A DNA stretch of 64,000 nucleotides from an uncultured Syntrophobacteraceae bacterium (lineage in GTDB: Bacteria > Desulfobacterota > Binatia > UBA9968): positions 22,603-86,602 of the forward strand of contig CAZNES010000006.1 in the NCBI GenBank assembly GCA_964572145.1. The letters run 5' to 3'. Made by a program: the position numbers and the translations under genes. The notes beneath the pieces were generated by a model, which saw only the letters and a list, made by a program, of their open reading frames with translations, was not told the DNA's origin and made no database searches. Below are positions 2 to 42,111 of this stretch, piece after piece (position 1 is the stretch's first letter; the number at the start of each line of letters is the position of its first letter).

Positions 2-187
2 CGCCGGCACTATCCGATCATCGACGTGGACGGCGTGCGCATCCAATTTCCCGAGGGTTGGGGACTGATTCGCGCCTCCAACACGCAGCCCGCGCTCGTT
101 CTCCGCTTCGAAGCTCAAAGCGCCGAGAAGGTGAACGAATACCGGCGGATCGTCGAGGCCAAGCTGAAAGAGCTGCGGAGCAGCTAA
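2..187 (+). CDS. phosphohexomutase (phosphoglucosamine/phosphomanno-mutase) C-terminal fragment, 5' end outside window
   Basis: Frame translates to ...GWGLIRASNTQPALVLRFEAQSAEKVNEYRRIVEAKLKELRSS*, typical alpha-D-phosphohexomutase C-terminal domain. Confidence 0.6.
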   Translation, partial: RRHYPIIDVDGVRIQFPEGWGLIRASNTQPALVLRFEAQSAEKVNEYRRIVEAKLKELRSS

Positions 188-194: not shown

Positions 195-2723
195 ATGCCC
201 GGCAAGATCGTCATCCGAGGGGCGCGGCAGCACAATCTAAAGAACATCGACCTCGAGATTCCCCGCGATCGCTTCGTCGTCATCACAGGAGTTTCCGGCT
301 CGGGAAAGTCCTCGTTAGCTTTCAACACTCTCTATGCCGAGGGTCAGCGCCGCTACATCGAGTCGCTCTCGGCTTACGCGCGGCAGTTCTTGCAGCAGAT
401 GGAGCGGCCCGACGTGGACGCGATCGAGGGGCTGTCGCCCGCGATCGCGATCGAGCAGCGCGGCGCGGGCCGGAATCCGCGCTCGACGGTCGGAACGATT
501 ACCGAGATTTACGACTATCTCAAGCTCCTCTTCGCCCGCATAGGCAAACCGCATTGCTACAAGTGCGGCCGTGAGATTGCCACGCACACGGTCCAGCAAA
601 TCGTCGATCGGCTCATCTCGTTACCGCCACAAACCCAGCTCAATATTCTGGCGCCGATCGCCGTTGCCGGAGTTGCCGATGCGCGGAAAAAGCTCGACGC
701 TTTGGCCAAGGCCGGCTTTGCGCGCGTCAAGATCGACGGCAGAGTTTACGAATTGAGCGAAGAGATCGCACTCAAAAAATCCGCCGGCCATGCCGTCGAT
801 CTGATCGTCGACCGAATCGTTCTAAGAGATGGCATCGAAAAGCGGCTGGCCGATTCCCTGGAGACCGCTTATCGCTACGGCGGCGACGTCCTCAAGGTCG
901 AGATTGTGGGCGGCACGGGAAATAATGACGCCGAGCTGATCTTCAGCCAGAAATCCATCTGCGTTCGCTGCGGTATTTCTTACGCCGAGCTTGCGCCGCA
1001 ACTTTTTTCATTCAACAGCCCGGAAGGCGCCTGTCCCGACTGCGCGGGTCTGGGCCGACGGCTCGCCGCTGGCAAAGGATCGGAGGAGCCAACAGATTAC
1101 CTCGACGCCGCGCTCTGCCCGGCTTGCAATGGAAAACGCCTCAGGAGAGAGAGTCTCCATGTTTTGATTGCGGGGAAGAGCATTTCCGATCTGTCGGGCG
1201 CCCCGGTCGCAGAGGTTCTAGATTTTTTCACCAAGCTCGAGCTCAGCGAGCGCGATCGGTCTATCGCCGACCGCATGGTGCGCGAGATCGCCGCACGGCT
1301 CGGTTTTTTGATTCAGGTCGGCTTGGATTATTTAAGCCTGGACCGGCCCTCGGCCACGCTTTCCGGCGGAGAGATTCAGCGAGTCCGGCTGGCGACGGAG
1401 ATCGGGTCGCGGCTGGTGGGGGTGCTCTACATTCTCGATGAGCCGAGTATCGGGCTTCATCCGCGGGACAACGCGCGTCTGCTTGGTCTTCTTTGCGAGC
1501 TTAGAGATCTGGGCAACACGGTGCTGGTGGTCGAGCATGATCGCGAGGCCATCATGGCGGCGGATCACGTCATCGATCTAGGACCCGGCGCCGGGGTTAA
1601 CGGCGGCGCGGTAGTGGCGCAAGGATCGCCGCGGCAAGTTTTGGCAAGTGAAGGATCGCTCACCGGCCGGTATCTTTCCGGCCGTCTGGAGATTCCGCTC
1701 CCCGCTCGCCGTCGCAAAAGCAACGGCAAAGCTCTGATCGTGAAAGGCGCGCGCCAGCACAATCTAAAAGGGATCACCGCGGAGTTCCCGCTAGGGGCGA
1801 TGACATGCGTGACCGGCGTTTCGGGATCGGGCAAAAGCAGCCTCGTCCTCGACACGCTCTACGTAGCGATGAATCAACGTCTTCACGGCGTGAAAGCCGG
1901 GACCGGACTGTGCGACAAACTCGTCGGATACCACAACTTCGATAACGTCATCAGCGTCGATCAGAATCCGATCGGCCGCACGCCACGCTCGAATCCCGCG
2001 ACCTACACGGGTCTATTTCCTCATATCCGCGATCTTTTCGCGCAGCTTCCGGAAGCGAGAGTGCGCGGCTTCGGACCCGGCAGGTTTTCTTTCAACGCTA
2101 AAGGCGGACGATGCGAAGCCTGCGCCGGCGACGGCATGGTCCGAATCGAGATGCACTTCCTGCCGGACACGTTCGTTCCCTGCGAAGTTTGCCATGGGCG
2201 GCGGTTTAACCGGGAGACCTTGGAGGTTTTGTATCGCGGTCGAAGCATCGCCGACGTTCTGGATTTAACCGTCAATCAGGCGATAGAGTTTCTGGGTAAT
2301 TTCCCGGCCATTCGCCGCAAGCTGGAAACGCTTAGAGACGTGGGCATGGGTTATGTCCGTCTCGGCCAGCCGGCGACGACTCTTTCCGGCGGCGAGGCGC
2401 AGCGGATCAAGCTGGCGCGCGAATTGAGCAAACGGTCCACCGGCAGAACGCTATATATCCTCGACGAGCCGACCACGGGTCTTCACTTCGACGACGTCAG
2501 AAAGCTGCTCGACGTGCTCAACCGTTTGACCGATGCCGGCAACACGGTCGTGGTCATCGAGCACAACCTGGACGTGATCAAGACGGCCGATTTCGTGTTG
2601 GATTTGGGTCCGGAGGGCGGATATGGTGGTGGAGAGGTCGTGGCTTTCGGCACTCCCGAGGAAATCGCTCTGGTAGAGAAATCTTATACCGGGCAATATT
2701 TGAAGAGCGTCCTTCATTTTTGA
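195..2723 (+). CDS. UvrA-family ABC ATPase paralog (842 aa) lacking the insertion domain
   Basis: N-term [63 protein letters not shown]; two Walker A/signature modules; zinc-finger CxxC pairs; only ~20 aa between CPDCAGLG and CPACNGKRL where canonical UvrA has a ~110-aa insertion domain. Confidence 0.9.
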
Positions 2724-2900: not shown

Positions 2901-4130
2901 ATGAAGATTCCGGTTTATTTAGACAATCATTCGACAACGCAGGTGGACCAGCGCGTTTTGGACGTTATGCTTCCCTATTTTATGGACGTGTTCGGGAACG
3001 CCGCCAGCCGCAACCATAGTTTTGGCTGGGAAGCGGAAGCGGCGGTCGACCAAGCGCGCGCTCAAATCGCGCGCTTGATCGGCGCGTCTTCGCCTAAAGA
3101 AATCGTATTCACGAGCGGAGCGACCGAATCGGACAATCTGGCGATCAAGGGGGCAGCCGAGGCTTACAAGGAGAGGGGAAATCATATCGTCTCGTGCGTC
3201 ACCGAGCACCGTGCCGTGCTGGACAGTTGCAAGTCTCTGGAGCGGCGCGGCGCCAGCGTCACTTATCTGCCGGTCAACAGCGACGGCGCTTTAAACTTTG
3301 AAAAGCTCTCCGCCGCGATAACAGAGAAAACAATACTCATTTCCCTGATGGCGGCCAACAACGAGATCGGCGTGATTCATCCGGTGAAAGAGATCGGGCA
3401 AATTGCCAAAGAGAGAGGCGTCGTTTTTCATTGCGACGGCGCGCAGGCGGTAGGAAAAATTCCCGTGAACGTCGAAGAAATGGGGATCGATCTGCTCTCA
3501 ATTTCGGCGCATAAAATGTACGGGCCCAAAGGAGTCGGCGCGTTGTACGTTCGCTCCAAGCGGCCCAAGGTTCGCCTCAGCCCGATCATCGATGGCGGCG
3601 GTCATGAGCAGGGTTTGCGCTCGGGCACGCTGAACGTCCCCGGCGTCGTCGGATTCGGCAAGGCGTGCGAAATTGCGGGGCTTGAGTTGCCGCAGGAAGC
3701 GGCCCGTCTTATCGACTTAAGAGAAAGACTCAAGCACGGCATCTTGAGCCGCCTGGAGGAGGTCTACGTGAACGGCGATCCGGTCCGGCGTTTGCCGGGG
3801 AATTTGAACATCGCTTTCGCTTATGTAGAAGGCGAGTCGCTATTGATGGCGCTCAAAGACATAGCGCTCTCCGCCGGATCGGCTTGCACATCGGCGAGCC
3901 TCGAGCCTTCCCATGTGCTGCGCGCATTGAGGCTGCCGGACGACATGGTGCATTCTTCGATCCGCTTTGGACTTGGCCGGTTCAATACAACGGAGGAAAT
4001 CGATTTTACAATCGATCGAGTGGCGCAGGAAGTATCGAGGCTGCGCAAGCTTTCACCGTTCTACGAAGCGGCGCAGCGGGACGTTCGAAGACGTGAAGAG
4101 AGGGATCTCAAAGCCCGGCAGGCTTCCTGA
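2901..4130 (+). CDS. iscS: cysteine desulfurase (class I, IscS/NifS type)
   Basis: PLP fold-type I; motifs [48 protein letters not shown]. Confidence 0.9.
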
Positions 4131-4156
4131 ATCCGTCGGGCTCTTGGAGGATTAGA

Positions 4157-4477
4157 ATGGTCAGCATTACAGAGCGCGCCGCGGAGAAAATCAAGCAGCT
4201 CCAGGCGGCGGAAAACAAAGAGAGCCAGGGATTGCGCCTGAAAGTCGTCGGCGGCGGCTGCTCAGGTCTGCAATACAAGATGGACCTGGACTTGCAGAAA
4301 CCTGGCGACCGCATCTTTGAAAAAGATGGCGCCAAAGTTTTGGTGGACATGAAAAGCCTTTTGTATCTCAACGGCACCGAGCTGGATTACAAGGAAGAGC
4401 TGATGCAATCCGGATTCGTGTTTCAGAATCCCAACGTGAAGCGCTCCTGCGGCTGTGGCACTTCGTTCACGGTTTAG
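4157..4477 (+). CDS. iscA: A-type Fe-S cluster carrier (IscA/ErpA/HesB family)
   Basis: 106 aa; GGGCSGLQY and C-terminal CGCGTSF motifs. Confidence 0.9.
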   Translation: MVSITERAAEKIKQLQAAENKESQGLRLKVVGGGCSGLQYKMDLDLQKPGDRIFEKDGAKVLVDMKSLLYLNGTELDYKEELMQSGFVFQNPNVKRSCGCGTSFTV

Positions 4478-4511
4478 TGTCGCGAAGCGTTGAATTAGAA
4501 GGGTAAAAGAA

Positions 4512-5963
<1,452 letters not shown>

Positions 5964-5983
5964 GAGAGAATTGGTAATTTTCC

Positions 5984-7204
5984 ATGGACCCCGTTATCTA
6001 CTTCGATAATAACGCGACCACGCGGCTGGCGCCCGAAGCGCTCGCGGCGATGCAACCCTATCTCACCGAGCTTTACGGCAATCCCTCCAGCATCCATGGA
6101 TTCGGCAGCCAGGTGGCGCAAAAGATCCAGGAGGCGCGAGAGCAGGTTGCGGCCTTGCTCGGCGCAGCCGATCCGATCGAAATCGTGTTCACCAGTTGCG
6201 GCACCGAGGGCGATAACGCCGCGATTCGAGGGATTCTGGAGTCGCAGCCGCAAAAGCGCCACATCGTGACGACTAAAGTCGAGCACCCGGCGGTGCTGAG
6301 CCTTTGTCAGCATCTGGAGAAAAAAGGCTATCGGGTAACGTGGCTCCGGGTCGATGCGGACGGGATGCTCGACCTGGAGGAGTTGAAAGCTTCGCTCAGC
6401 GACGACACCGCGCTGGTCTCGATCATGTACGCCAACAATGAAACCGGGGTGATCTTTCCGATCGACGCCATCGGCGAGATCGTGAAAGCTAGAGGAATCC
6501 CGTTTCACGTCGATGCCGTTCAGGTGGCGGGAAAGATTCCGCTTAATCTCCGGCAAATCCCGGTCGATCTGCTGACGATATCGGCGCATAAATTCCACGG
6601 GCCCAAGGGCGTCGGCGCGATTTATGTCCGAAGAGGCATCACGTTCAGGCCTTTCATGATCGGCGGACATCAGGAGCGTGGGCGGAGAGGCGGAACTGAA
6701 AACGTGGCGGGCATCGTGGGAATGGGAAAAGCAGCCGAACTGGCTCTCGGAAACATGCCGGAAGACGAGCCCCAGGTGCGCGGGCTGCGGGACCGCCTGG
6801 AACAATCGCTGCTGGAAACGTGCCTGGAGAGCCGGGTGAACGGTCATCGTGAAAAGCGGCTGCCCAATACGCTGAACATGAGTTTTAAATTTTTAGAGGG
6901 CGAGGCCATTCTGGTTTTATTAGACCAGAACGGAATTTGCGCTTCCACAGGCTCAGCGTGTACTGCCGGCTCATCCGAGCCGTCTCATGTTCTTAGGGCC
7001 ATGGGAGTGCCTCCGGACTGGATCCAGGGAGCTGTGAGGTTCAGTCTGAGCCGCTACACCACGGAAACAGAGGTGGGGTTTGTCAACCAAAAGCTGCCCC
7101 CGATCGTCCAACGCTTGAGCGGTCTCACTGCTTTGGGGAAACTGGCGAAGAAATCCGAGCTCAAGCGTAGGGATTATGGCAATCAGGTCGGAGCGAGGAG
7201 ATAA
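5984..7204 (+). CDS. second class I cysteine desulfurase (NifS-like)
   Basis: 406 aa paralog of the upstream iscS; motifs TSCGTEGDNAAIRG, SAHKFHGPKGVGAIYV, STGSACTAGSSEPSHVL. Confidence 0.9.
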   Translation: MDPVIYFDNNATTRLAPEALAAMQPYLTELYGNPSSIHGFGSQVAQKIQEAREQVAALLGAADPIEIVFTSCGTEGDNAAIRGILESQPQKRHIVTTKVEHPAVLSLCQHLEKKGYRVTWLRVDADGMLDLEELKASLSDDTALVSIMYANNETGVIFPIDAIGEIVKARGIPFHVDAVQVAGKIPLNLRQIPVDLLTISAHKFHGPKGVGAIYVRRGITFRPFMIGGHQERGRRGGTENVAGIVGMGKAAELALGNMPEDEPQVRGLRDRLEQSLLETCLESRVNGHREKRLPNTLNMSFKFLEGEAILVLLDQNGICASTGSACTAGSSEPSHVLRAMGVPPDWIQGAVRFSLSRYTTETEVGFVNQKLPPIVQRLSGLTALGKLAKKSELKRRDYGNQVGARR

Positions 7205-14155: not shown

Positions 14156-14947
14156 ATTGCCCCAAAAAAAATAGAAGTGATTGACCGGGCTGTGGCCGGC
14201 GCCGATCGCAAAACTTTTTCGGATCGCCCGCGTCATGTAAGCTTTCGCGTGGGCTACCGCCTGCTCCAATTTCTTTCTCTTCGCCAGGTTCGCCGCGATG
14301 GCCGCGGAAAAGGTGCAGCCGGTTCCGTGCGTGTTCCGCGTCGCAACGCGCGCGGCGGTGAAGGCGCGAAACTTTTTTCCGTCGTAAAATAAATCCGTGG
14401 CTGGACCCTTTCGGTGGCCTCCTTTGATAACCACGCTCTTTGCTCCCATGGCGACGATGCGTTTGGCCGACTCTTTTAAATCCCGCAGCCGTGTTCCATG
14501 AAGGCCGGTGAGTTGCTCCGCCTCGGGAAGATTAGGTGTCACGATGGCTGCGAGCGGAATGAGCCGCGACTTGAGCGTCTCGATCGCATCGGAACGCAAC
14601 AGCAGATCGCCCGACTTGGCGATCATCACCGGATCGACGACCAGATTGGTCAAGCGGTATTCGCGAATCTTCGCCGCCACGATCTCGATGATCGCCGAAT
14701 TCACCAGCATGCCGGTCTTCACGGCATCCGCGCCGATGTCTTGCATCACGGCGTCGATCTGAGCCGCAACTAAATCAGGACTCAGCTCGAAAATCCGTGT
14801 CACGCCGCGCGTGTTCTGCGCCGTGATCGCCGTGAGTGCGGATGTTCCGTAGACGCCGAGCGCGGCGAAGGTCTTGAGATCGGCCTGAATTCCCGCGCCG
14901 GCGCCCGAGTCGGAGCCGGCGATTGTGAGAGCTTTATGGATTTTCAT
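14117..14947 (-). CDS. thiD: hydroxymethylpyrimidine/phosphomethylpyrimidine kinase
   Basis: MKIHKALTIAGSDSGAGAGIQADLKTFAALGVYGTSALTAITAQNT.. ribokinase-like fold with ThiD motifs. Confidence 0.9.
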   Translation of the reverse strand: MKIHKALTIAGSDSGAGAGIQADLKTFAALGVYGTSALTAITAQNTRGVTRIFELSPDLVAAQIDAVMQDIGADAVKTGMLVNSAIIEIVAAKIREYRLTNLVVDPVMIAKSGDLLLRSDAIETLKSRLIPLAAIVTPNLPEAEQLTGLHGTRLRDLKESAKRIVAMGAKSVVIKGGHRKGPATDLFYDGKKFRAFTAARVATRNTHGTGCTFSAAIAANLAKRKKLEQAVAHAKAYMTRAIRKSFAIGAGHSPVNHFYFFWGNLETKHLRKKKAR

Positions 14948-14953
14948 CCGGTC

Positions 14954-15658
14954 CTAAAGGTTGCCAAGAAGAACCATCGCGCCCGTCGGCTGTGGAGCGC
15001 CGCCGGCCGGCTCAATGGTTACGGCGAATTTGTCGAAAGCCTTCGTCTCGGGCAGCTTGGGAAGACGGACCAGCGCCACGCCGCCGGTATCCACGACGAA
15101 AATTCCCGCGGGAACCGACTCTGTGCCGGAGATGCCCCAAAGCTCATAAGCCGTGCCGGCGGGATTCTGCGACAGGTCCGTTACCAACAGCAAACCCGTG
15201 CGCGATACCGGATTCCAAAGAAGCTGTCCTTTCGCGCCGCGACTTGCCGGAAGATCCGCGAGATTGACGATACGGACTTGCGGATTCGATAAGAGCCGAA
15301 TCACCTCCTCCCGCTGCCCCACCTGGGTTTGTAATGCGGCGAGCTGACCTCGCGCTTGCCGCAGTTCGTTCCGCGTGGCGATCAAGTTCCAGCTTAAAAT
15401 AAGCACGAGACCCGCGGCGGCCACGGCGCCGATACTCCACGCAACCCGCTGTGATTTCCCTTCTTCACCGAGCGGCTCTGGCTTGGCGCTCACCGGCTTG
15501 CTGTGCTCCACGCGGCCATCGTATGCCTTCTCGGGAAGAAGTTCCATGAGGACCAACTTGCTTCTATCGCCTCTCTGGTTCACCGGCAAGGAACACGGCG
15601 AACGGAGTGAATGCTCTCTTGCTTCCGAGCCTGTTTCAGAAATAGGATAATTCGTCAA
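14954..15658 (-). CDS. RskA-domain membrane protein (anti-sigma-K C-terminal domain), orphan
   Basis: Single TM (VAWSIGAVAAAGLVLILSW) followed by the RskA C-domain ending ..FAVTIEPAGGAPQPTGAMVLLG; no adjacent ECF sigma gene. Confidence 0.65.
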   Translation of the reverse strand: MTNYPISETGSEAREHSLRSPCSLPVNQRGDRSKLVLMELLPEKAYDGRVEHSKPVSAKPEPLGEEGKSQRVAWSIGAVAAAGLVLILSWNLIATRNELRQARGQLAALQTQVGQREEVIRLLSNPQVRIVNLADLPASRGAKGQLLWNPVSRTGLLLVTDLSQNPAGTAYELWGISGTESVPAGIFVVDTGGVALVRLPKLPETKAFDKFAVTIEPAGGAPQPTGAMVLLGNL

Positions 15659-15675
15659 AGCGAACAGGAGGTCCG

Positions 15676-16545
15676 ATGGAGTCGATTCCGCCGGCGACGC
15701 TTGCTGCGGCCAACGAAAAGAGCCGGAGGCTCAGAGAACTGGTTCGCGCGCCCGAGATTCTCGTTATGCCGGGCGCCTATGATGTTCTCAGCGCGCGCTT
15801 GTTCGAGCAGATGGGCTTTCAGGCGATTCAATGCACGAGCGGCGGGATTGCGGCGGCGCTCGGATATCCCGACGGCGAAGTCATGAGCCGCGAGCAAACC
15901 GTCGAGGCGACGGGACAAATCGTGAAAGCGGTTTCTCTTCCGGTGAACGCCGACGCCGAGAGAGGCTACGGCGATGAAAAGGAGATCGGTGAAACCGTGC
16001 GCGCGCTCGTCGCCGCCGGTGTCGCGGGGATGAACCTGGAGGACGGCGCGGGGGGTAAGCAAGGAGGAGGTCGTGGGTTGGTGGATATGGGCGAGCAATT
16101 GCGGAAGATCAACGCCGTCATGGAAACGAAGCGGGCATTAGGCAGCGAATTTTTTCTCAACACTCGCGTGGACGCGCTGATGGTGATGACGGAGGATCCC
16201 AAGAAAGCGCTCGATGAGGCGATCCGCCGGGGCAATGCCTACGCCGAGGCCGGCGGGGACTGTATCTTTTTCATGCATGCGGTTTCGCGCGAGACGATCG
16301 GCCGGCTTGTCAAAGAGGTCAAGGCGCCCATCAGCGTTCTCGCCGGGCCGCAGACGCCCAGCGTGAGCGAGTTGCAGGATTTGGGCGTCGCGCGCGTGAG
16401 CTACGGCTCGGCTTTTCTCAAAGCCGCCATCGGCGCGACTAGACGCTTGGCTCTTGAGATCCGTGACCAGGGAACCATCACGGCGCTCAAAGAGGCGATG
16501 CCGACTCCAGAGATCGCGGCTCTGGTGGCGGGAAAGAAAAAATGA
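15676..16545 (+). CDS. isocitrate lyase/PEP mutase superfamily enzyme (2-methylisocitrate lyase / oxaloacetate decarboxylase-like)
   Basis: ..PGAYDVLSARLFEQMGFQAIQCTSGGIAAALGYPDGEVMS..GYGD..GMNLEDG. Confidence 0.75.
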   Translation: MESIPPATLAAANEKSRRLRELVRAPEILVMPGAYDVLSARLFEQMGFQAIQCTSGGIAAALGYPDGEVMSREQTVEATGQIVKAVSLPVNADAERGYGDEKEIGETVRALVAAGVAGMNLEDGAGGKQGGGRGLVDMGEQLRKINAVMETKRALGSEFFLNTRVDALMVMTEDPKKALDEAIRRGNAYAEAGGDCIFFMHAVSRETIGRLVKEVKAPISVLAGPQTPSVSELQDLGVARVSYGSAFLKAAIGATRRLALEIRDQGTITALKEAMPTPEIAALVAGKKK

Positions 16546-17003
16546 ACGGCATTGTCGCATCCATTCACATCACGCCCAACGCGGCGGCGCCGACGAAATC
16601 GGTCGGCGAAGTGCGCGCGCTGGCGGGAAAAGGACTCGAAGGCGACCGTTACTGTAATGAGGCGGGGACCTATTCGTATCAGGGAGGCTCGGCCCGGCAG
16701 GTGACCTTGATCGAAGTCGAGGCGATCGAGGCGCTCAAGCGCGACGATGGTATCGAGATCGATCCCGGCGCGAGCCGGCGCAACATCGTGACGCGCGGCG
16801 TGGCGCTAAATCATCTTGTCGGCCGCGAATTTAAAATCGGTCAAGTCACGCTTCGGGGCATCGAGCTGTGCGAGCCGTGCGCCCATCTTCAGAAGTTAAC
16901 CCAACAAGGAGTCACACGCGGTCTCGTCCACAGGGGCGGTCTCAACGCGGAGATTCTCACCGACGGCGTGATCCATGCTGGAGACTTCGTGGAACTTAAA
17001 TAA
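16542..17003 (+). CDS. MOSC domain protein
   Basis: 153 aa; ..GLEGDRY.. and ..LCEPCAHL.. motifs; 4-bp overlap with the upstream gene. Confidence 0.8.
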   Translation: MNGIVASIHITPNAAAPTKSVGEVRALAGKGLEGDRYCNEAGTYSYQGGSARQVTLIEVEAIEALKRDDGIEIDPGASRRNIVTRGVALNHLVGREFKIGQVTLRGIELCEPCAHLQKLTQQGVTRGLVHRGGLNAEILTDGVIHAGDFVELK

Positions 17004-17660: not shown

Positions 17661-20600
17661 CTAGACAGTCACCGCTTGCGGCTGAACCTGCTTCGCTGAG
17701 TTCCCTTTCAAATATTCGCGCAGGTAGCGGGCGGTGTGCGATCGCTTGCCGTCGTTGATGACGTCCAGCGGCGCTCCGCAGGCGATCACGTGTCCGCCAT
17801 TCTCACCGCCCTCGGGGCCGAGATCGACGAGATAGTCCGCTTCTTTGATGATTTCGAGGTTGTGCTCGATCGTGACCACTGTGTTGCCCATGTCCACGAG
17901 CCGGTGCAGGATGTGGATTAATTTCTCTACGTCCGCGAAGTGTAAACCCGTCGTCGGCTCGTCTAAAACGTAAAGCGTCTTTCCATGCGATTCTTTTCCG
18001 AGTTCATACGCAAGCTTGATACGCTGCGCCTCGCCGCCGGAGAGCGTGTTGCTCGCCTGCCCGAGTGTGATGTAGCTCATGCCGATGTCGTCGAGGATTT
18101 TGAGCGGCCGCGCGATCTTGGGGAAGGCGTGAAAGAAGGGTACGGCCTCTTCGACCGTCATTCTCAGCACGTCTCCGATATTTTTCCCGTTGTAGCGGAT
18201 ATTGAGCGTCTCCTCGTTGAAGCGCATTCCGCCGCAGGCGTCGCAGTGGAGAAATACGTCGGGCAAGAAGCTCATCTCTTTGCGAATCTTTCCCTGCCCC
18301 GCGCAGACCTCGCACCGGCCGCCGGAAACGTTAAATGAAAATCGATTCGGCGCGTAGCCGCGCAGCCGCGCCTCCGGCGTGAGCGCAAACATGCGCCGGA
18401 TCTCGTCAAGAAAGCCGACGTAGGACGCGGGAATCGAGCGCGGCGTCTTGCCGATCGGACTCTGGTCCACCTCGACGATTCGCTCCAGCGCTTGCCAGCC
18501 GGCGATGTCTTTGTGCTGTCCGGGGCGTCCGGCGAACTGCCCGAGCTTCGACTTGAGTCCCTTGTAAAGCACTTCTTTGACCAGCGTGCTTTTGCCGGAA
18601 CCGGAGATTCCGGTGACACAGCTCCAGGCGCCGAGCGGCAATTTGACGTCGACGTTCTTTAAATTGTTTGCCTTCGCGCCGTGGACGGTGAGCCAGGTCG
18701 AGCCGGCGAAAAGACGGAGCGGCCAGATTCTCTTCTTCGGCGCGTTGAGAAAATTGCCGGTCAGCGAGGTGGGGTTGCGGCGGATTTCTTCGGGCGTGCC
18801 GATCGCGACGACGTTGCCGCCGTGGACTCCCGCGCCGGGACCGAGGTCCACGATGATATCGGCGGCCTCGATCGTCGCCTCGTCGTGCTCGACCACGAGC
18901 ACGCTGTTGCCCGCATTTTTCAATTTCTTCAGCGTGCCGAGCAGCATGGCGTTGTCGCGCGGGTGGAGGCCGATCGTCGGCTCATCCAGAATGTAGCAGA
19001 CGCCGCGCAGATTCGACCCGAGCTGCGCCGCGAGACGGATGCGCTGCGCTTCTCCGCCCGAGAGCGTGTCGGCGCGGCGGTCGAGAGTGAGATAAGGCAA
19101 TCCGACTTCGCCGAGAAATTCGAGCCGCTGTTGGATCTCGCGCAGAACTTTCTCCATGACCGCGCGGTCGCGGTCCGTGCCGCCGTTGTCGTGCTGGCTC
19201 AAATCGAGGCCGTGGAAATAGCGCTGGGCTTCCTTCACCGAAAGCCCGGTGACCTGCCAGATCGCCTGGCCGTTTACTTTGACCGCTTGCGCGCGGCGAT
19301 TGAGCCTTCGGCCGTGGCAGGAAGCGCAGGAAGACTCGGCCATGAATTGCGACAGCCAATCGGCCAAGCCGTTCTCCGACCCGTCCCAGAGTCCTTTCAG
19401 ATACGGGATGAGACCGACAAATCCGCTATCGCCGCCGTGCACCACCCGGTCGCGAATTTTTTTGCTCAAGCGCGAGAACGGCGCTTTGACGTTGACGCGG
19501 TCTTTCTTGAGATCGCGTAGAATTCTTTCCAGGCGTCCCCTGATCGGTCCCGCGCCGGCGGTGGCGCCGGAGGACAACGAAGAAACAATCTCTTCCAAGG
19601 GCCGGCGCTGATTGCCGATAATCAGCTCGGGGTCGAATTCCAGACTGAAACCGACGCCGGAACATTCCGCGCAGGCGCCTTGCCGGCTGTTGAAGGAAAA
19701 CAATCTTGGGTCGAGAGTCTCGTAGCCGATGCCGCAGTGGAGGCAGAAGAGGCGCTGGTTGTAGATGTGCTCGCCCGAGCGCGTGACGAGATGCACCACG
19801 CCGTTGCCGAGGCGAAGCCCTTGCTCCACCATCGCTTCCACCTCGCGCCCGCCGGCTTTGGCCTGGCCGATGAGGATATCGATATCGTGCTCGCGGTAGC
19901 GCTCCAGGCCGGCGGCTAATTTCGGCGATCGGAGATCGACGACCTGTCCGTCGATGCGCGCGCGCCGGTAGCCGAGCTTGAGCGCGCCGGTGATCACCTC
20001 TTTGTGAAATCCCTTCCGTCCCCTGACGATGGGGCTCAGCACCGCGATTTCCTTTCCCCGATGAACGCGGGAGATGCGATCGAGGATCTGGCTTTTGGTC
20101 AGCGACCGGATCTCGCGCTCGCACTTCACGCAGTGCTGCTTTCCGACTTTCGAATAGAGGAGCCTCAGATAGTGGTAAATCTCGGTGACGGTCGCGACGG
20201 TCGAGTTCCTTCCTCCCTGGCTGAGACGCTGCTCGATCGCCACGGTGGGAGGAATGCCGGAAAGCAGATCGACGTTCGGCCGGTCCATGATGTTTAGGAA
20301 CTGCCGCGCGTAGGTGGAGAGGCTGTCGATGTAGCGCCGCTGCCCCTCGGCATAGATGATGTCGAATGCGAGCGAAGATTTTCCCGAGCCGCTGAGTCCC
20401 GTGATCACGACGAAGCGGTCGCGGGGAATCTCGAGGCTGATATTTTTTAGGTTGTGCTCCTTGGCGCCGACGATTTGAATGGCATGGTTACCGTTGCCGG
20501 CGCCGTTCGACTCGGCGACGCGAAAACTTTTCTCCAAGCGCGGCGCGAACTGAGAAACGGCGCCGCGCTTCAAATAGGGCTTCAAGTACCGCCCGGTATG

Positions 20601-23324
20601 AGACGCGGCGCTGCGTGCGATCTCCTCCGGCGTGCCCTCGGCCACGATCGCGCCGCCGGCGTCGCCACCCTCTGGCCCCAAGTCGATGATGTGATCGGCG
20701 CATTTGACCACGTCCATGTTGTGCTCGATAACGATGATGGAGTGGCCCTGGTCGATCAGCTCGTTGAACGCCCAGAGGAGCTTCTCGATGTCGTGAAAGT
20801 GAAGGCCGGTGGTCGGCTCGTCGAAAATAAAGAGCGTCCCCGACTTGCGCGCCTTCGCCATGTGGGCCGCGAGTTTCAGCCGTTGCGACTCACCGCCGGA
20901 GAGCGTCGTGAGCGGTTGTCCCAGCCGGACGTAGTCCAGGCCGACCGCGCGCAGCGGGCGCAGGCCGTATTCGATTTCCGTCGAGTCTTTGAAAAATTCC
21001 ATCGCCTCGGCGACCGTCATGTCGAGCACGTCGCGGATCGTGCGGCGGCGATAGGCCACCTCTAAAATTTCCTGGCGGTAGCGGCTCCCCTGGCACTCGG
21101 GGCAGGAGGTGTAAACGTCCGAGAGGAACTGCATCTCGACTTTTTCAAAGCCTTCGCCCCGGCAGGTCTCGCATCGGCCTCCTTCGACGTTGAAAGAAAA
21201 AGTCGAAGGAGTGTAGCCCCGGAGGCGGGAAAGATCCGCGGCGGCGAAGAGCTTGCGGATGCCGTCGAAGACTTTCATGTAGGTCGCGGGGTTCGACCGT
21301 GGCGTCGTCCCGACCGGCGATTGATCGACCAAAATGACATCGGAGATCTTGTCCGCGCCTTCCAGGCTCGCGCAGTGCATGACCGTTGCGCCCGGAGAGT
21401 CTTTCAGCTTACGCAAATTGCGGTTTATCACTTCGTTGACCAGGCTCGACTTTCCCGAGCCGGAAACGCCGGTGAGGCAGACAAAAAGGCCCAGCGGAAT
21501 TTCCACGTCGATGGTTTTGAGATTGTTGGCATCCGCGCCGAAAATTTTAATGGTTCGCTGCGGGATCGGCTTGCGCCTCTTCGAAGGAAACGGAATGTTC
21601 TTTCTCTGCGACAGATACGCGGCGGTGAGGGACTTCTGGTCGCTCAAGAGATCGTTGTAAGATCCGGCAAAGACGATCTCGCCGCCGTGCTCGCCGGCCT
21701 TCGGTCCGAGGTCGATGATGTAGTCGCTCTCCTTGATGATCTCCGGATCGTGCTCGACCACGACCACGGTGTTTTGGTTGGCGCGGAGATCGTGAAGAAT
21801 TTCGACCAGCCGCCGGCTATCGCGTGGGTGCAGGCCGATCGACGGCTCGTCGAGGACGTAGAGCGTGTTCACCAGCGACGAGCCGATCGCGGTGGTGAGA
21901 TCGACGCGCCCGAGCTCGCCGCCAGAGAGCGTGCGCGACTGCCGGTCCAAGGTCAGATATTCGAGGCCGACGCCCATGAGATAACCGAGCCGGCGCCGGA
22001 TCTCGTCGAGAATCAGCGCTGCAACCGCGTCGCTCTCAGCGCCGAGATGAAGATCATTGAAGAAGCAATGCGCCTCGCCCACGCTCATCGCGGCGATATC
22101 GGCGACGGTTTTTTCGTCGACGCGGAAATTGAGCGCGTCGGGTTTCAGCCGCGACCCCCGGCATTCCGGGCAGAGTAGATAGGCGCGGTAGCGCGAGAGA
22201 AAGACGCGCACATGCATGCGGTAGCTCTTCCGCTCCAGCCGCTGGAACCAGCCGCGGATGCCTTTAAACTTGCCGTCGCCGTCGACGATCAGTTTCTTCT
22301 GCTTCTCGCTCAGCTCGCCGTAAGGCTTCTTGGTCGGAATCTTTTTGCTTTCGCAAAATTCCATCAGTCGCGCCGTCCGCCGCGGCTTGGTCTTCCACGG
22401 CTTGATCGCGCCGTCGGCGAGCGACTTCGTCGGATCGGGGATCACGAGATCCAAATCGATGTCGATCACTCGCCCAAAACCGCGGCAGATTTCGCACGCG
22501 CCCAACGGGCTGTTGAACGAGAACAGATTCGGCGTGGGCTCGTGGTAGGTCAAATCGCAATGCGGACAATGGAAGTGGCTGCTGAAGGGCTCCACACGCC
22601 AGCCGTCTTCCGGGTAGTAAAAGTTTACCCTTCCCTTGCCGAACTGAAGCGCTTGTTCGAGCGAGTCGCAAATTCTCTTTCTGGCGTCTGGCCGGTAAAT
22701 CAACCGGTCCACGACAACTTCGATTCGCTCCGTCCCGGCGGGGAGATCTTCGATCTCTTCCAGATTGCAGACGGCGCGGTCGCGCAAAAGACGATGGAAG
22801 CCCGCTTGCTGCAACCCCGCCTTAGTCTCGCTCCAGGGAAGCGAGGGAGAAATCGAAAGCGGAAAAGCCAGAACCAGAGGCGTCCCTTCGGGCATGCCGC
22901 TCAATTTCTTGAATATCGATTGGGCCGTGTCCCGCTCCACCACCCGCCCGCAGCCTTTGCAATAAAGGACCGAGACCTTGGCGAAGAGGAGCTTCAGATG
23001 ATCGTGCAGCTCGGTCATGGTGCCGACCGTCGAGCGCGAGGTCTTGACCGGCCGCCGCTGGTCGATCGCGATCGTCGGCGGAATGCCTTCGATGCTTTCC
23101 ACGTCGGGCTTGTCCATGCGGTCGAGGAACTGGCGCGCGTAGGCGGAAAAACTTTCCACGTAGCGCCGCTGCCCCTCGGCGTAAAGGATGTCGAAAGCGA
23201 GAGTGGATTTGCCCGAGCCGCTGACTCCGGTGACGACGGTCAGGGCGCCCAGCGGAATGTCGAGGTCGAAGTTTTTAAGATTGTTCTGCTTTGCGCCGCG
23301 GATGCGGATCCAACCTTCATTCAT
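17661..23324 (-). CDS. uvrA: giant tandem UvrA-UvrA fusion protein (1887 aa; four ABC ATPase modules)
   Basis: Two complete UvrA units in one ORF: first begins [44 protein letters not shown], second begins ~aa 950 [39 protein letters not shown]; the second unit carries the canonical UvrB-binding signature [13 protein letters not shown] and an insertion domain; the first unit has an insertion domain but a divergent region instead of the UvrB-binding signature. Confidence 0.9.
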
Positions 23325-26527: not shown

Positions 26528-28807
26528 ATGAAGACCATGGAAGTTTCCCGCAGACAATTTCTCAAAGGCGCCGGCGCGCTCATCGTCAGCTTCAACCTCT
26601 TTCCGGCGGCGCGAAATGTCTTGGCCGCCCAGTTCGCGACGTTGCCTTCCGGCGACATCGATCCACAGTCGCTCGATTCCTGGCTCGCGATCGGCAAGGA
26701 CGGCAGCGTCACGTTCTACACCAGCAAAGTCGAGCTCGGCACAGGCACGATCACGGCATTGGCGCAGATCGTCGCGGAAGAATTAGATGTGTCTTTCGAC
26801 CGCGTCAAAATGGTTTACGGCGACACTTCTCAAACAATCGAGCAAGGCTCCACCGTCGGGAGCCGCAGCATCGAGCGCGCCGGCCCGCAGGTGAGACAGG
26901 CCGCGGCGGCGGCGCGCCAGGAGCTGCTCAAGCTCGCCGCCGCGCGGCTCGGCGCGCCTGTCGAGAAACTAACGGTCCAAAACGGCGTGGTCAGCGATGG
27001 CGCAAAGAAAGTTTCTTACGGCCAACTGATCGGCGGCCAGCGCTTCAACGTCAAGATCACCGCCACCGGCGCCGGCAACGAGATGAAGGTCGCGCCCGAA
27101 GTGAAGCCGAAAGATCCAAAGGATTATAAAATCGTCGGCCAGCCGATGAAACGCATGGACTTGCCCGGCAAGCTTACGGGAGAACACCTCTACGCGCACG
27201 ACGTGCGCATTCCCGGGATGCTGCACGGCCGCGTGGTCCGTCCGCCGGTCGTCAATACCGAGCCGACCAGCATTGACGAGAGCTCAGTTAAAAATATTCC
27301 CGGCTTCGTGAAGGTCGTGCGCGAGGGAAGCTTTGTCGGCGTCGTAGCCAAGACGCAGTGGGCCGCGATCAAATCCGTCGAAGCGCTGAAGGTCACCTGG
27401 GCCCCTCCCACGACGAAGCTGCCGGCGAACCCAGAGGCGTTATTCACTTACTTGAAAAACACCAAGCCCGCGCGCACGCTGAAGGCAGTGGAGAAAGGGA
27501 ATCCGGCAGAAGCCTTCGACAAGGCCAAAAAGACCTATCAGGCGAGCTACCGCTGGCCTTTTCAGATGCACGGCATGATCGGCCCGTCGTGCGCCATCGC
27601 CGACGTCAAGGGCGACAAGGCAACCATCTGGTCGGGACCGCAGGGGCCGTTCAGAACGCGCGCGACGGTCGCGACGATTTTAAAAATTCCCGAGCAGAAC
27701 GTGCGTGTGATTTACCACGAAGCTTCCGGTTCCTACGGGCGCATGAGCACCGACGACGGCGCCGAAGACGCGGCGCTGCTTTCGCGCGCGGCCGGCGCCC
27801 CGGTGCGCGTCCAGTGGTCACGCCAGGACGAACATGGCTGGGAACCCAAAGGTCCGGCGCAGGTGGACGAGGTGAAGGCGGCGATCGACGGCGACGGCAA
27901 GCTCATCGCGTGGGATTTCGTCGATTATGGCCAACCGTGGACGGCTTCAGGATCGACGCCGCTCCTCGCTTCGCTGCAGGTCGGCATCAAGCCCAATAAT
28001 CCCGGCGGTTCCAACGGCACGCAGAGCAGTGGCGAGATTTACGCGGTGCCCAATCAAAAGATCGTTGCCGAACATATCAATTGGCACTTTGCGGAACCGA
28101 TTCCGTTGCGCACGGGCAATCTGCGCGCGCCCGGCGACTCGGCGCGCTGCTTCGCGAGCGAGTGTTTCCTCGACGAGATCGCGGCCGATCTGGGCGTCGA
28201 TCCGGTCGAATTTCGCCTGCGCCACACGGCGGAGCCGCGCGGCGCGGACTGTCTCAAGGCCGCCGCCGACAAGGCGCAATGGCAAAAGCGTTCGTCGCCC
28301 GGTCCCGCTCAGAGCGGGAACATCGCCAAGGGTCGCGGTGTCGCGCTCGCGCGCAGAGCGGGCGCTTACGCCGCGGCGGTGGCCGACGTGGAAGTGAACC
28401 GAACGACGGGCCAGGTCGTCGTCAAGCGCGTCGTCTGTTCGCACGACTGCGGACTGATTGTGAATCCCGACGGCGTCAACAATCAGATCGAAGGCAACGT
28501 GATCCAAGGCGTCAGCCGCGCGCTGTTCGAGGAAGTCACCTTCGATGAGAAAGGCGTGACCAGCCTGGATTGGAAGACGTATCCGATTCTTAAATTCAGC
28601 GACGTGCCGGAAATTGAAATCGTGCTCATCAACCGGCCCGAGATGCCGTCGCTGGGCGCCGGCGAGCCGTCGACGGTCCCCGTTCCGGCCGCGATCGCCA
28701 ACGCGATCTTCGACGCGACCGGCGCGCGGCTGCGCGAAGCGCCGTTCACGCCGGCGCGGGTTTTGACCGCGCTTAAAGCTGCGCCAGCTGCGAATCAGAA
28801 GAGTTGA
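26528..28807 (+). CDS. molybdopterin-dependent oxidoreductase large subunit (isoquinoline 1-oxidoreductase beta / aldehyde dehydrogenase-like) with Tat signal
   Basis: N-term MKTMEVSRRQFLKGAGALIVSF twin-arginine motif; 759 aa MoCo-binding domains. Confidence 0.85.
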   Translation: MKTMEVSRRQFLKGAGALIVSFNLFPAARNVLAAQFATLPSGDIDPQSLDSWLAIGKDGSVTFYTSKVELGTGTITALAQIVAEELDVSFDRVKMVYGDTSQTIEQGSTVGSRSIERAGPQVRQAAAAARQELLKLAAARLGAPVEKLTVQNGVVSDGAKKVSYGQLIGGQRFNVKITATGAGNEMKVAPEVKPKDPKDYKIVGQPMKRMDLPGKLTGEHLYAHDVRIPGMLHGRVVRPPVVNTEPTSIDESSVKNIPGFVKVVREGSFVGVVAKTQWAAIKSVEALKVTWAPPTTKLPANPEALFTYLKNTKPARTLKAVEKGNPAEAFDKAKKTYQASYRWPFQMHGMIGPSCAIADVKGDKATIWSGPQGPFRTRATVATILKIPEQNVRVIYHEASGSYGRMSTDDGAEDAALLSRAAGAPVRVQWSRQDEHGWEPKGPAQVDEVKAAIDGDGKLIAWDFVDYGQPWTASGSTPLLASLQVGIKPNNPGGSNGTQSSGEIYAVPNQKIVAEHINWHFAEPIPLRTGNLRAPGDSARCFASECFLDEIAADLGVDPVEFRLRHTAEPRGADCLKAAADKAQWQKRSSPGPAQSGNIAKGRGVALARRAGAYAAAVADVEVNRTTGQVVVKRVVCSHDCGLIVNPDGVNNQIEGNVIQGVSRALFEEVTFDEKGVTSLDWKTYPILKFSDVPEIEIVLINRPEMPSLGAGEPSTVPVPAAIANAIFDATGARLREAPFTPARVLTALKAAPAANQKS

Positions 28808-33075: not shown

Positions 33076-34707
<1,632 letters not shown>

Positions 34708-35488: not shown

Positions 35489-35845
35489 ATGAGCGATCCT
35501 TATTTTCCCGTCCTGGTAATTTTTTTCATTGCCGGGCTGGTTGTGTTGGGACTACTCCTGATCGCCCAAACGGCCGGTCCCAAAAGGCCGAGCCCGGTCA
35601 AGGCGGAACCTTTCGAGTCGGGAAATCCGCCGAAAGGCGACGCCCGCATTCGTTTTCCGGTAAAGTTCTATCTGGTAGCGATGCTTTTTCTCATCTTCGA
35701 CTTGGAAGCCGTTTTTCTCTATCCCTGGGCCGTCACGTTTCGCCGCCTGGGGATTTTCGGCCTTGTGGAGATGGGGATTTTTTTGCTCATCGCCGTGATC
35801 GGCTTTATGTATGCCTGGAAAAAAGGCGCGCTGGACTTGGAGTAA
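35489..35845 (+). CDS. nuoA: NADH-quinone oxidoreductase subunit A
   Basis: 118 aa, three TM helices, ..FLYPWAV.. Confidence 0.9.
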   Translation: MSDPYFPVLVIFFIAGLVVLGLLLIAQTAGPKRPSPVKAEPFESGNPPKGDARIRFPVKFYLVAMLFLIFDLEAVFLYPWAVTFRRLGIFGLVEMGIFLLIAVIGFMYAWKKGALDLE

Positions 35846-35851
35846 TTTTCA

Positions 35852-36415
35852 ATGCCGGAAGAGAGCCCGCGCATTCAATATCTCAGCGGCAAATTCGGCG
35901 CGCTGATTCTTGAATCGCATGTGCTCCACGGCGACGAGACGGTCGTCATCCGCCGGGAGGGATTGCTGGAGATCGTCCGCGCTCTCAAAGAAGATCCCAA
36001 AATGGACTTCGATTTTCTCGCGGACCTTACCGCGGTCGATTATTTGGGAAAAAAAGAGCCGCGCTTCGAAGCGGTCTATCACCTGCTTTCCTTGCAGAGC
36101 CATCGCCGCATCCGCGTCAAAGTCCCGGTTCCGGAAGATCAGCCGGAAGTCGATTCTTTGACGCCGCTGTGGAAGGGGGCGAACTGGCTGGAGCGCGAGG
36201 TCTGGGACATGTTCGGCATTCGCTTTCGCGGCCATCCCGATCTCCGACGCATCCTGCTCTACGAGGAGTTCCGCGGCTATCCGCTGCGGAAAGACTATCC
36301 GGTGAACCAGCGCCAGCCTCTGATTCCCGAGCGGCCGCTCGCGGGAACTTTCGTCGATACCCGGTCGGACAATAAACTCTTGCAACTGAAGCAGAAGGCT
36401 GAGCGCAAGCCATAA
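35852..36415 (+). CDS. nuoC: NADH-quinone oxidoreductase subunit C
   Basis: ..EREVWDMFGIRFRGHPDLRRILL.. 30-kDa subunit signature; begins 6 bp after nuoA (no nuoB in between). Confidence 0.9.
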   Translation: MPEESPRIQYLSGKFGALILESHVLHGDETVVIRREGLLEIVRALKEDPKMDFDFLADLTAVDYLGKKEPRFEAVYHLLSLQSHRRIRVKVPVPEDQPEVDSLTPLWKGANWLEREVWDMFGIRFRGHPDLRRILLYEEFRGYPLRKDYPVNQRQPLIPERPLAGTFVDTRSDNKLLQLKQKAERKP

Positions 36416-36423
36416 GCGGCGCC

Positions 36424-37614
<1,191 letters not shown>

Positions 37615-37635
37615 ATCGCAAAGGTAGGGGCGGGT

Positions 37636-38136
37636 TTGAAACCCGCCACTACGCCGAGAAAAATGGCCTTGGAATTTTCACCCGAGACGCGCAAAAATTT
37701 AGACGAGATCGTCGGCCGCTATCCGAAAAAAGAGGCGGCGATGCTGCCGGTCCTTCGACTGGCTCAGGAGGAGTTCGGCTATCTCAGCGCCGAGGCGATC
37801 GAATACGTCGCCGCGATCATGGGCGTCCCGGCGGCGCGGGTCTACGGCGTCGTTACGTTCTACACGATGCTCAACATGAAGCCGATCGGCAGGCACCACG
37901 TCCAGGTCTGCCGGACGCTCCCCTGCGCGCTGGCGGGCGCGGAGCGGATGACCGCGGCGATCAAGGCGAAGCTCGGCATCGGAGTCGGAGCAACCACGGC
38001 GGACGGAAAATTCACGCTCTCGGAAGTCGAGTGCCTAGCCTCCTGCGGCACGGCGCCGATGATGCAGGTGAACGACGACTACTACGAAAACCTGAACGAG
38101 CAAAGCGTGGGCGAAATTCTCGACAAGCTGAAGTAA
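37636..38136 (+). CDS. nuoE: NADH-quinone oxidoreductase subunit E (2Fe-2S)
   Basis: ..VQVCRTLPCALAGAE..ECLASCGTAPMMQVN.. ; TTG start behind AGGTAGGGG, alternative ATG at 37663. Confidence 0.85.
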   Translation: MKPATTPRKMALEFSPETRKNLDEIVGRYPKKEAAMLPVLRLAQEEFGYLSAEAIEYVAAIMGVPAARVYGVVTFYTMLNMKPIGRHHVQVCRTLPCALAGAERMTAAIKAKLGIGVGATTADGKFTLSEVECLASCGTAPMMQVNDDYYENLNEQSVGEILDKLK

Positions 38137-38138
38137 CG

Positions 38139-39410
38139 ATGGAAAAGATTCTGCTACGGAACGTTGGCGCGCCGGACTCGTACACGATCGGAGTTTACCG
38201 TTCCCGCGGCGGCTACGGCGCGCTGGAGAAAGTGCTGCGCGAGATGTCGCCCGAGCGGCTCATCGGCGAGATTAAAGCTTCCGGCCTGCGCGGGCGCGGC
38301 GGCGCGGGTTTTCCCACCGGCATGAAGTGGGGTTTCGTTCCCAAGGACAATCCCAAGCCGAAATACGTCGTCTGCAACGCCGATGAGAGCGAGCCAGGAA
38401 CGTTCAAGGACCGGCTGCTCATCGAGAAAGATCCGCACGCGATCGTCGAAGGCACGATCATCGCCGCTTACGCGATTCGGTCGCACACCGCCTTCATCTA
38501 CATCCGCGGCGAGTTCAGCTTCGGCGCCAAAGTACTGGAGCGCGCAATCGCCGAAGCCAGAGCGGCGGGATATCTGGGAAAAAATATTCTCGGCTCGGGT
38601 TACGACCTCGACTTGATTCTCCACCGCGGCGCGGGCGCGTATATCTGCGGCGAAGAAACCGGGCTGCTCTCGTCGTTGGAAGGCGGCAAAGGCTGGCCCA
38701 AGGTCAAGCCGCCGTTCCCGGCGACGCACGGCCTCTTCGGCTGCCCGACGGTCGTGAACAACGTCGAGACGTTGGCTTCCCTCCCATGGATCATCGAACA
38801 GGGCGCGGCGCGATACGCGGCGATCGGCACCGAGAAAAGCAAGGGCACGAAACTCTTCAGCGTCAGCGGCCATATCAAAAAACCCGGGGTCTACGAAGTG
38901 GATATGGGTTATCCGTTCAAGAAATTTCTCCAAGAAGATTGCGGCGGCGTGCCGAACGGAAAAAAGTTGAAGGGCGTGATTCCCGGCGGCGCGTCGATGC
39001 CGGTGCTGCGGCCTGACGAGCTCGACGGCATCACGATGGACTACGAATCGTTCCAGGCCGCCGGCACGCTGCTCGGCTCGGGCGGCGTGATCGTTATGGA
39101 CGAATCGACCTGCATGGTCCGCGCCGCGTGGAACATCTCGCGGTTCTTCGAGCATGAGTCCTGCGGGCAGTGCAGCCCGTGCCGCGAGGGCTGCCACTGG
39201 ATGGAAAAGATTTTCCGGCGCATCGAGCGCGGCGAAGGAAAGACAGGCGATTTGGATCTCATCCTCAGCGTGAGCGGCAACATCGCAGGCAACACGATCT
39301 GCCCGTTCGGCGACGCGGCCGCCATGCCCGCCGCCGCCTTCATCAAGAAATATCGCGACGAGTTCGAAGAGCACATCGCGCGCAAGCGGTGCACGGTTTC
39401 GGCGAGTTAA
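38139..39410 (+). CDS. nuoF: NADH-quinone oxidoreductase subunit F (FMN, 4Fe-4S)
   Basis: MEKILLRNV..GLRGRGGAGFPTGMKW..; C-terminal CGQCSPCREG; track ORF 37602..39410 N-extension is out-of-context and rejected. Confidence 0.9.
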   Translation: MEKILLRNVGAPDSYTIGVYRSRGGYGALEKVLREMSPERLIGEIKASGLRGRGGAGFPTGMKWGFVPKDNPKPKYVVCNADESEPGTFKDRLLIEKDPHAIVEGTIIAAYAIRSHTAFIYIRGEFSFGAKVLERAIAEARAAGYLGKNILGSGYDLDLILHRGAGAYICGEETGLLSSLEGGKGWPKVKPPFPATHGLFGCPTVVNNVETLASLPWIIEQGAARYAAIGTEKSKGTKLFSVSGHIKKPGVYEVDMGYPFKKFLQEDCGGVPNGKKLKGVIPGGASMPVLRPDELDGITMDYESFQAAGTLLGSGGVIVMDESTCMVRAAWNISRFFEHESCGQCSPCREGCHWMEKIFRRIERGEGKTGDLDLILSVSGNIAGNTICPFGDAAAMPAAAFIKKYRDEFEEHIARKRCTVSAS

Positions 39411-39414
39411 TTTC

Positions 39415-42104: not shown

Positions 42105-42111
42105 ACGAACG

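Follow-up and report, generated by a model that had tools for sequence, protein, structure and literature searches.

Background

The closest described relatives of the protein considered here are the class I UvrA proteins, represented by those of E. coli, Bacillus (Geobacillus) stearothermophilus (Bst; 2r6f, 3uwx), T. maritima (3pih) and M. tuberculosis (3zqj), and the class II UvrA proteins (D. radiodurans UvrA2, 2vf7; DrrC; Ecm16, 7sh1), which keep the insertion domain (ID) and are without the UvrB-binding domain (PMC5128194, PMC10192343). Here we describe the uvrA gene at positions 195 to 2,723 of a 64,000-nucleotide stretch of DNA from an uncultured Syntrophobacteraceae bacterium of the lineage Binatia (GenBank assembly GCA_964572145.1, contig CAZNES010000006.1, positions 22,603 to 86,602), a stretch we call the window throughout. 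Its 842-residue product is a class I-type UvrA that has lost the opposite domain, the ID, and a second UvrA-family gene, a 1887-residue tandem double UvrA, lies about 15 kb away.

Removal of the ID from class I UvrA has precedents in the laboratory. E. coli UvrA Δ290-400 (Manelyte et al. 2010) incises a 50-bp fluorescein-dT duplex much as the wild type does, incises UV-damaged plasmid more slowly, and discriminates damaged from undamaged DNA less well; patch-synthesis measurements show repair shifted toward the template strand, and in the authors' conclusion, the ID counts for less in Mfd-dependent repair than in global nucleotide excision repair, NER (PMC3025350). The corresponding Bst ΔID protein (Pakotiprapha 2008) had no in vitro defect, as cited in PMC3025350. 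The window form shares with both the domain removed, its boundaries between the Zn2 cysteine pairs, and an otherwise intact protein. They are laboratory constructs, whereas the window form is natural, conserved lineage-wide, co-evolved with its partners and placed beside a double UvrA. Within the full-text literature, a coverage outside which many subscription papers fall, neither natural class I UvrAs lacking the ID nor double UvrAs of the kind reported below turned out to have been described.

Results and Discussion

Architecture of the 842-residue UvrA

Walker A, Walker B, signature and H-loop motifs are intact in both ATPase modules (LSGGEIQR and VIEHN among them), and further ABC/AAA signatures were matched in Pfam. 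All three zinc modules retain their four cysteines: Zn1 (C121/C124/C256/C259), Zn2 (C280-P-D-C283 and C308-P-A-C311) and Zn3 (C640/C643/C663/C666). The UvrB-binding domain, PF17760 (UvrA_inter), was matched at residues 132-237, with positions 2-107 of the 109 in the profile covered (E=1.5e-28, 99 bits), while PF17755 (UvrA_DNA-bind), the profile of the ID, has no match in the protein. The two Zn2 pairs lie 24 residues apart, versus 115-130 residues in canonical UvrAs (n=70, many phyla). Alignment to structures in the PDB by phmmer places residues 4 to ~290 on residues 23 to ~306 of Bst UvrA (2r6f) and residues 302-840 on residues 418-956, skipping exactly the ID; ~115 ID residues are likewise left unaligned against the C. 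thermocellum, T. maritima and M. tuberculosis proteins. Within the UvrB-binding domain, the canonical (G/E)RKGE(Y/H) motif is replaced by other sequence at residues 156-166 (nt 660-692).

These results bear out the structural part of a sequence-only reading of this gene, which had described an 842-residue UvrA with both ATPase modules and the zinc cysteine pairs (upheld by the open reading frame, ORF, and by motif scan), an ID reduced to a short stretch, and a UvrB-binding domain that is present yet diverged; the alignment to B. stearothermophilus UvrA that it had proposed as a check agrees.

An AlphaFold2 model built from an alignment of relatives (mean pLDDT 83.8, pTM 0.77) is consistent with this architecture. 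The linker that replaces the ID is acidic and predicted to be disordered (pLDDT <50 at residues 292-301), and this is the sole low-confidence internal stretch near the deletion. The best structural match of the model is Bst UvrA as it occurs in the UvrA-UvrB complex (3uwx_A; TMq 0.86, 55% identity), and class II structures rank far lower (2vf7, 40% identity; 7sh1, 34%).

Class membership

The 842-residue protein passes both NCBIfam equivalog cut-offs for UvrA, with 1319.3 bits for NF001503 (cut-off 1147) and 1272 bits for TIGR00630 (cut-off 729.8); both matches are split into two stretches, with profile positions ~290-398 skipped. In addition to the equivalog score it has what distinguishes a class I UvrA, namely the ATPase motifs, three zinc modules, PF17760, and signature II with the Zn3 hairpin, and it lacks one class I feature, the ID of ~110 residues (PF17755) between the Zn2 pairs. 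It is 52-56% identical over the aligned parts to the class I UvrAs listed above, with which it has in common both ABC ATPases, the three zinc modules, the UvrB-binding domain, the DNA groove of signature II, the Zn3 hairpin, the fold and the locus. Unlike them it has a disordered acidic linker of 24 residues in place of an ID of ~110-120 residues, and the RKGE motif is missing from the window's subclade.

Class II UvrAs resemble it in being UvrA-family ABC ATPases of similar length (812-842 aa) minus one accessory domain. The domain lost is the opposite one, however, and identity to them is 34-40%, compared with 55% to class I. The window protein has the UvrB-binding domain and Zn1 and is without the ID, the reverse of class II. 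It is also a single unit, scoring 671 against a cut-off of 3054 for the fused double-UvrA model NF001885.

In a neighbour-joining (NJ) tree of 813 columns, computed with the ID masked and without support values, the ID-less clade falls within class I as sister to canonical UvrAs of 942-958 aa that include Binatia/Binataceae sequences. Judged by profile score and tree placement, the protein is a class I UvrA and has no class II or DrrC-type paralog status. Class II membership was rejected on the UvrB-binding domain and Zn1 being present, the ID being absent, and this placement. A phylogeny against class II had been suggested by the sequence-only reading as a way to check a class II affinity; the window's clade instead nests in class I.

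Conservation of the ID-less family

Searches of NCBI, JGI, ENA and Logan recovered more than 100 clusters (90% identity) of UvrAs of 840-859 aa without PF17755. Those with names are mostly Candidatus Binatia and 'Deltaproteobacteria' metagenome-assembled genomes (MAGs), and several lie on contigs of 3.4-6.2 Mb. Across the window's clade the linker is 14-22 aligned residues long, acidic and little conserved. By contrast, in an alignment of 51 relatives (65-96% identity) the catalytic motifs (Walker A/B, signature, H-loop) and the 12 zinc cysteines are invariant. In the UvrB-binding domain of the same relatives, R217 is invariant and E223 at least 90% conserved; we take these two residues to correspond to R216 and E222 of the E. 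coli protein.

Divergence from canonical UvrAs is uneven along the protein. Identity between the window protein and canonical UvrAs equals or approaches that among canonical UvrAs themselves in signature II (0.72 vs 0.75) and in the C-terminal part of the second ATPase module (0.70 vs 0.69), and is lowest in the UvrB-binding domain (0.39 vs 0.48), the most diverged part. Of the columns with 90% or higher conservation among canonical UvrAs, 74 of 85 are retained in signature II; in the UvrB-binding domain, 15 of 24 canonical-conserved columns are retained. Most ID-less relatives keep the motif GRKGEY, which is almost universal otherwise; its loss is confined to the window's subclade, in which variable sequence takes its place (P0001-P0019, P0025, P0026, P0029, P0031, P0033, P0035, P0036, P0044, P0052, P0054, P0073). 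Because the catalytic and zinc residues are invariant and per-domain identity matches the level found between canonical proteins, the ID-less uvrA is most likely kept under purifying selection.

Locus and orthology

Six independent long contigs with ID-less uvrA (L081-L083, L118, L119, L120) share the gene order DUF309-mfd-surA-pdxA-glmM-uvrA-csd-iscA-(sufB)-csd-orf152-lpxL. In the window, the glmM-like gene is the last before uvrA in the mfd-surA-pdxA-glmM-uvrA string and ends 7 nt before the uvrA ATG; the window opens within this gene and carries the genes of the shared order 3' of uvrA. A further 32 metagenome loci centred on the lpxL-like gene, mostly short, confirm the order uvrA-csd-iscA-sufB-csd-orf152-lpxL; none of them extends to the position of the double UvrA. 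Canonical sister uvrA genes are found in the same string, as mfd-surA-pdxA-uvrA in L010 and L084 and as uvrA-csd-nifU-iscA-hscBA-Rrf2 in L085. Since ID-less and canonical sister uvrA occupy the same gene string, we identify the ID-less gene as positional ortholog of the class I housekeeping uvrA and not as a stray accessory copy. The Mfd encoded at ID-less loci retains the UvrB-homology module PF17757. No biosynthetic cluster lies near the ID-less uvrA in the window, where the neighbourhood is of housekeeping character.

A second, tandem double UvrA

A motif scan of all loci revealed the second UvrA-family gene of the window, which encodes two complete UvrA units (Table 1). The N unit (residues 1-946) matches PF17760 with 54 bits and contains an insert of 100 residues that PF17755 matches in part; its RKGE motif is absent and its signature I reads LSGGELGR. 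The C unit (residues 947-1887) covers positions 4-942 of the 943 of the UvrA equivalog profile, matches PF17760 with 70 bits and contains a diverged 107-residue insert; RKG is kept in it, but its UvrB-binding domain is without the DR...RLxDSxE segment. Read from these motifs, the UvrB-binding domains of the two units are partly degenerate in a complementary manner. The whole protein scores 1271 against the 3054 cut-off of the Chlamydia-type double-UvrA model NF001885.

The family to which it belongs comprises more than 120 clusters at ≥75% identity, mostly from Binatia. JGI contig Ga0613056_85795 (67,011 bp) bears an ID-less uvrA 84% identical to that of the window (14206-16737) together with a double uvrA (35637-41288), in the same order and orientation and with the same intervening genes. 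Two more MAGs probably carry both UvrAs, as inferred from GenBank accessions that lie 495 and 1763 apart.

Relatives of the two units occur as separate adjacent ORFs in a Verrucomicrobiota MAG (L025, 5904-9065 and 10007-12859), as a lone N-unit-type gene in an Acidobacteriota MAG (L022, 10001-12841) and as a fusion, a 1777-aa ORF, in a Fibrobacteraceae MAG (L072). This occurrence as adjacent ORFs, single gene and fusion hints at an origin of the double UvrA from neighbouring paralogues that became fused.

ID loss in other lineages

Short linkers in place of the ID are not confined to Binatia. Among the matches listed are UvrAs with 18 aligned residues in this position in Nitrospiraceae, 16 in Thermodesulfovibrionia, 9 in Patescibacteria and 19 in a gammaproteobacterial MAG, together with partial ID remnants of 42 aligned residues in Shapirobacteria and 52 in Methylomirabilis. 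The Nitrospira/Nitrospiraceae form alone accounts for the 120 best matches of a search (P0427-P0546), all of them ~835 aa long and without PF17755, on contigs of up to 1.6 Mb (for example L001, 10001-12493). In the NJ tree the short-linker groups are scattered within class I, with the Nitrospiraceae form apart from the Binatia clade, and this placement, in a tree that has no support values, suggests several independent ID losses within class I.

A related asymmetry appears in fused double UvrAs. Many proteins of ~1750-1830 aa among the 50%-identity representatives combine one full-ID unit with another whose Zn2 pairs are 6-44 residues apart, in effect covalent dimers with one ID (P0280, P0282, P0295, P0299-P0301, P0308, P0313, P0315, P0317, P0327, P0369, P0375, P0397, P0418 and others). 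Double UvrAs, whose scores are summed, dominate the matches in this set of representatives. Fused double UvrAs (~1800 aa; of NF001885/PRK00635 type and others) are thus like the window protein in that many contain an ID-less unit of the same kind, and differ in that this unit is joined to an ID-bearing one, whereas in the window it stands by itself, as a single-unit gene at the uvrA locus.

Probable function of the ID-less UvrA

Our analysis shows how the protein is built, that its motifs are intact, that the family is conserved, that the locus is orthologous and that the double UvrA occurs alongside it; all biochemical behaviour proposed below is drawn by analogy with the engineered ΔID mutants. 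On that footing, the 842-residue protein is probably a working NER UvrA whose intrinsic clamp for damage is weakened, a reading we favour with some reserve. The ancestor of a single clade centred on Binatia would have lost the ID through a clean in-frame deletion, with purifying selection thereafter. The protein would still dimerise and hydrolyse ATP at four sites, bind duplex DNA in the groove of signature domain II, and sense distortion via the Zn3 hairpin. It would then load UvrB, or be recruited by Mfd at a stalled RNA polymerase, through its UvrB-binding domain (R217/E223 and the rest of PF17760). Clamping and melting of the duplex would presumably be impossible without the two ID arms, and because those arms are missing, DNA residence and the capacity to distinguish damaged from undamaged DNA are expected to be lower. 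Such a weakness may be tolerated where verification by UvrB, Mfd-driven recruitment and the co-resident, insert-bearing double UvrA cover the ID-dependent global search.

The sequence-only reading had gone further in the other direction, judging a standard role as NER damage sensor unlikely. This is too strong, given that E. coli Δ290-400 can still sustain incision and suffers comparatively little where repair depends on Mfd (PMC3025350). The genome has another UvrA-family gene, so that the 842-residue protein is not the sole UvrA; yet that copy is the 1887-residue double UvrA and not a canonical 940-residue uvrA. In the class II or DrrC sense, the term 'paralog' used in the sequence-only reading is not supported, given equivalog score, tree and synteny.

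The reading as a working NER UvrA must be tempered by several observations. Cryo-EM of the M. tuberculosis system in 2025 gives the IDs a central part in clamping and melting DNA, in flipping out a base and in passing the lesion on to UvrB (PMC11985968). In class II, Ecm16 relies on its ID both to bind DNA and for specificity, and Ecm16 without its ID no longer binds DNA (PMC10192343). Loss of RKGE in the window's subclade may point to partners being bound differently or less tightly, or to a relaxation of constraint. Neither uvrB nor uvrC was found within the 64-kb window, and a full NER set in the genome is an assumption.

The arrangement at this locus also invites a bolder scheme, a division of labour in which the ID-less UvrA serves Mfd-dependent transcription-coupled repair (TCR) and the insert-bearing double UvrA conducts the global search. 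An ID-less uvrA lies a few kb 3' of mfd in every locus examined, the Mfd there keeps its UvrB-homology module, E. coli ΔID UvrA leans to template-strand repair (PMC3025350), and ID-less and double UvrA occur together on two independent contigs. The linkage mfd-surA-pdxA-uvrA is, however, also seen with canonical uvrA (L010, L084), which makes it older than the loss and not specific to it, and the UvrB-binding domains of the double UvrA are both partly degenerate; we consider this scheme possible but doubtful. Stated in full, it would amount to a naturally split NER in which an mfd-linked ID-less UvrA is a UvrB loader guided by Mfd and RNA polymerase or by some other partner, the double UvrA performs global search, and the ID is a dispensable, repeatedly shed accessory, a proposition we put forward only tentatively and would not ourselves bet on. 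If it were true, it would be at odds with models that make the two IDs central to recognising the lesion and handing it over, and the shedding would span Binatia, Nitrospira, Thermodesulfovibrionia, Patescibacteria and one unit of many fused UvrAs of ~1800 aa.

Divergence of the UvrB-binding domain raises a different prospect, that of a redundant copy in slow decay, the double UvrA having taken over NER while the old uvrA lost its ID and drifts, with the loss of RKGE as a further step. The presence of a second UvrA, the missing RKGE in the window's subclade, and the low conservation of this domain relative to the rest (15 of 24 columns; 0.39 vs 0.48) would all fit. Against such drift stand the more than 100 clusters, at 65-100% identity, in which the ORF is full-length and keeps the same length, catalytic and zinc residues that are all invariant, ATPase and signature II identity equal to that among canonical proteins, and a clade that is old, diverse and found on contigs of 3-6 Mb, so that decay seems unlikely to us. 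A pseudogene was rejected.

A role outside NER, in drug resistance or on some other substrate as for the class II proteins DrrC, Ecm16 and UvrA2, was the alternative put forward by the sequence-only reading, and it has general precedent in UvrA paralogues with altered domain sets (PMC10192343; bioRxiv 10.1101/2022.02.02.478902). The architecture is nonetheless the reverse of class II, with UvrB-binding domain and Zn1 present and ID absent (PMC5128194); the dependence of Ecm16 on its ID for DNA binding and specificity (PMC10192343) speaks against an ID-less protein of that type; the equivalog cut-offs are passed and the tree places the protein in class I; and the syntenic housekeeping locus, with no biosynthetic cluster nearby, offers nothing supportive. 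We regard such a role as very improbable. An assembly or gene-calling artefact that removed ~330 nt has a negligible chance of explaining the gene, and was rejected: four data sources yield the same junction in more than 100 clusters, long-read contigs of 3.4-6.2 Mb have it as well, the reading frame runs through without a break, and the zinc module is complete.

As a working NER UvrA, the ID-less form would bear on how far damage recognition depends on the ID. Natural ID-less class I clades, including the well-studied genus Nitrospira, would constitute a natural experiment on the UvrA core alone (ATPase modules, signature II groove, Zn3 hairpin and UvrB-binding domain) and on compensations for the missing domain, such as a second UvrA or Mfd. 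The source names of ID-less and double UvrAs are all 'excinuclease ABC subunit UvrA', and because databases label all of them simply in this way, the variant is invisible to annotation-based surveys of repair capacity.

Features of the window and neighbouring genes

Table 1. Coordinates of uvrA, its encoded domains and associated genes in the window
Feature	Position (nt)	Strand	Evidence or remark
glmM-like gene (phosphoglucosamine mutase family), 3' end	2..187	+	Translation matches glmM C-termini of L120 and L083
uvrA, class I-type, without ID, 842 aa	195..2723	+	ATG start; ORF, profile, PDB and model evidence
Walker A of ATPase module I (GVSGSGKS)	288..311	+	Motif scan; invariant among ID-less relatives
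UvrB/Mfd-binding domain, ~residues 119-262	549..980	+	PF17760; flanked by the Zn1 cysteines C121/C124 and C256/C259
Zn2 module closed over 24-residue linker, in place of ID	1032..1127	+	C280/C283 and C308/C311 invariant
Walker A of ATPase module II (GVSGSGKS)	1815..1838	+	Motif scan; invariant among ID-less relatives
Zn3 module and beta-hairpin (CEAC...CEVC), damage-sensing element kept	2112..2192	+	Motif scan
Cysteine desulfurase, IscA, SufB-like (SufBD), second cysteine desulfurase	2901..7204	+	Same order in L090, L095, L099, L103, L106, L108 and L120
Tandem double UvrA, 1887 aa, two complete units	17661..23324	-	Motif scan of all loci; ~15 kb from ID-less uvrA

The Fe-S assembly cluster 3' of uvrA is a hybrid; among more distant relatives, the SufB gene is absent in L081-L083, and L085 has a full isc operon. 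Other repair genes lie within 10 kb 3' of the ID-less uvrA on two of the long contigs: Ku and a LigD-type ligase/primase in L119 (18462-21868), and a 1150-aa UvrD-family helicase with a PD-(D/E)XK nuclease domain in L118 (19372-22526). Elsewhere in the window are GroEL (33085-34707), a run of NADH:quinone oxidoreductase (nuo) subunit genes (37602-47949, forward strand), and three genes for molybdenum hydroxylase large subunits of the xanthine dehydrogenase / CO dehydrogenase family, two on the forward strand (26528-28807, 48928-51237) and one on the reverse (58218-60512).

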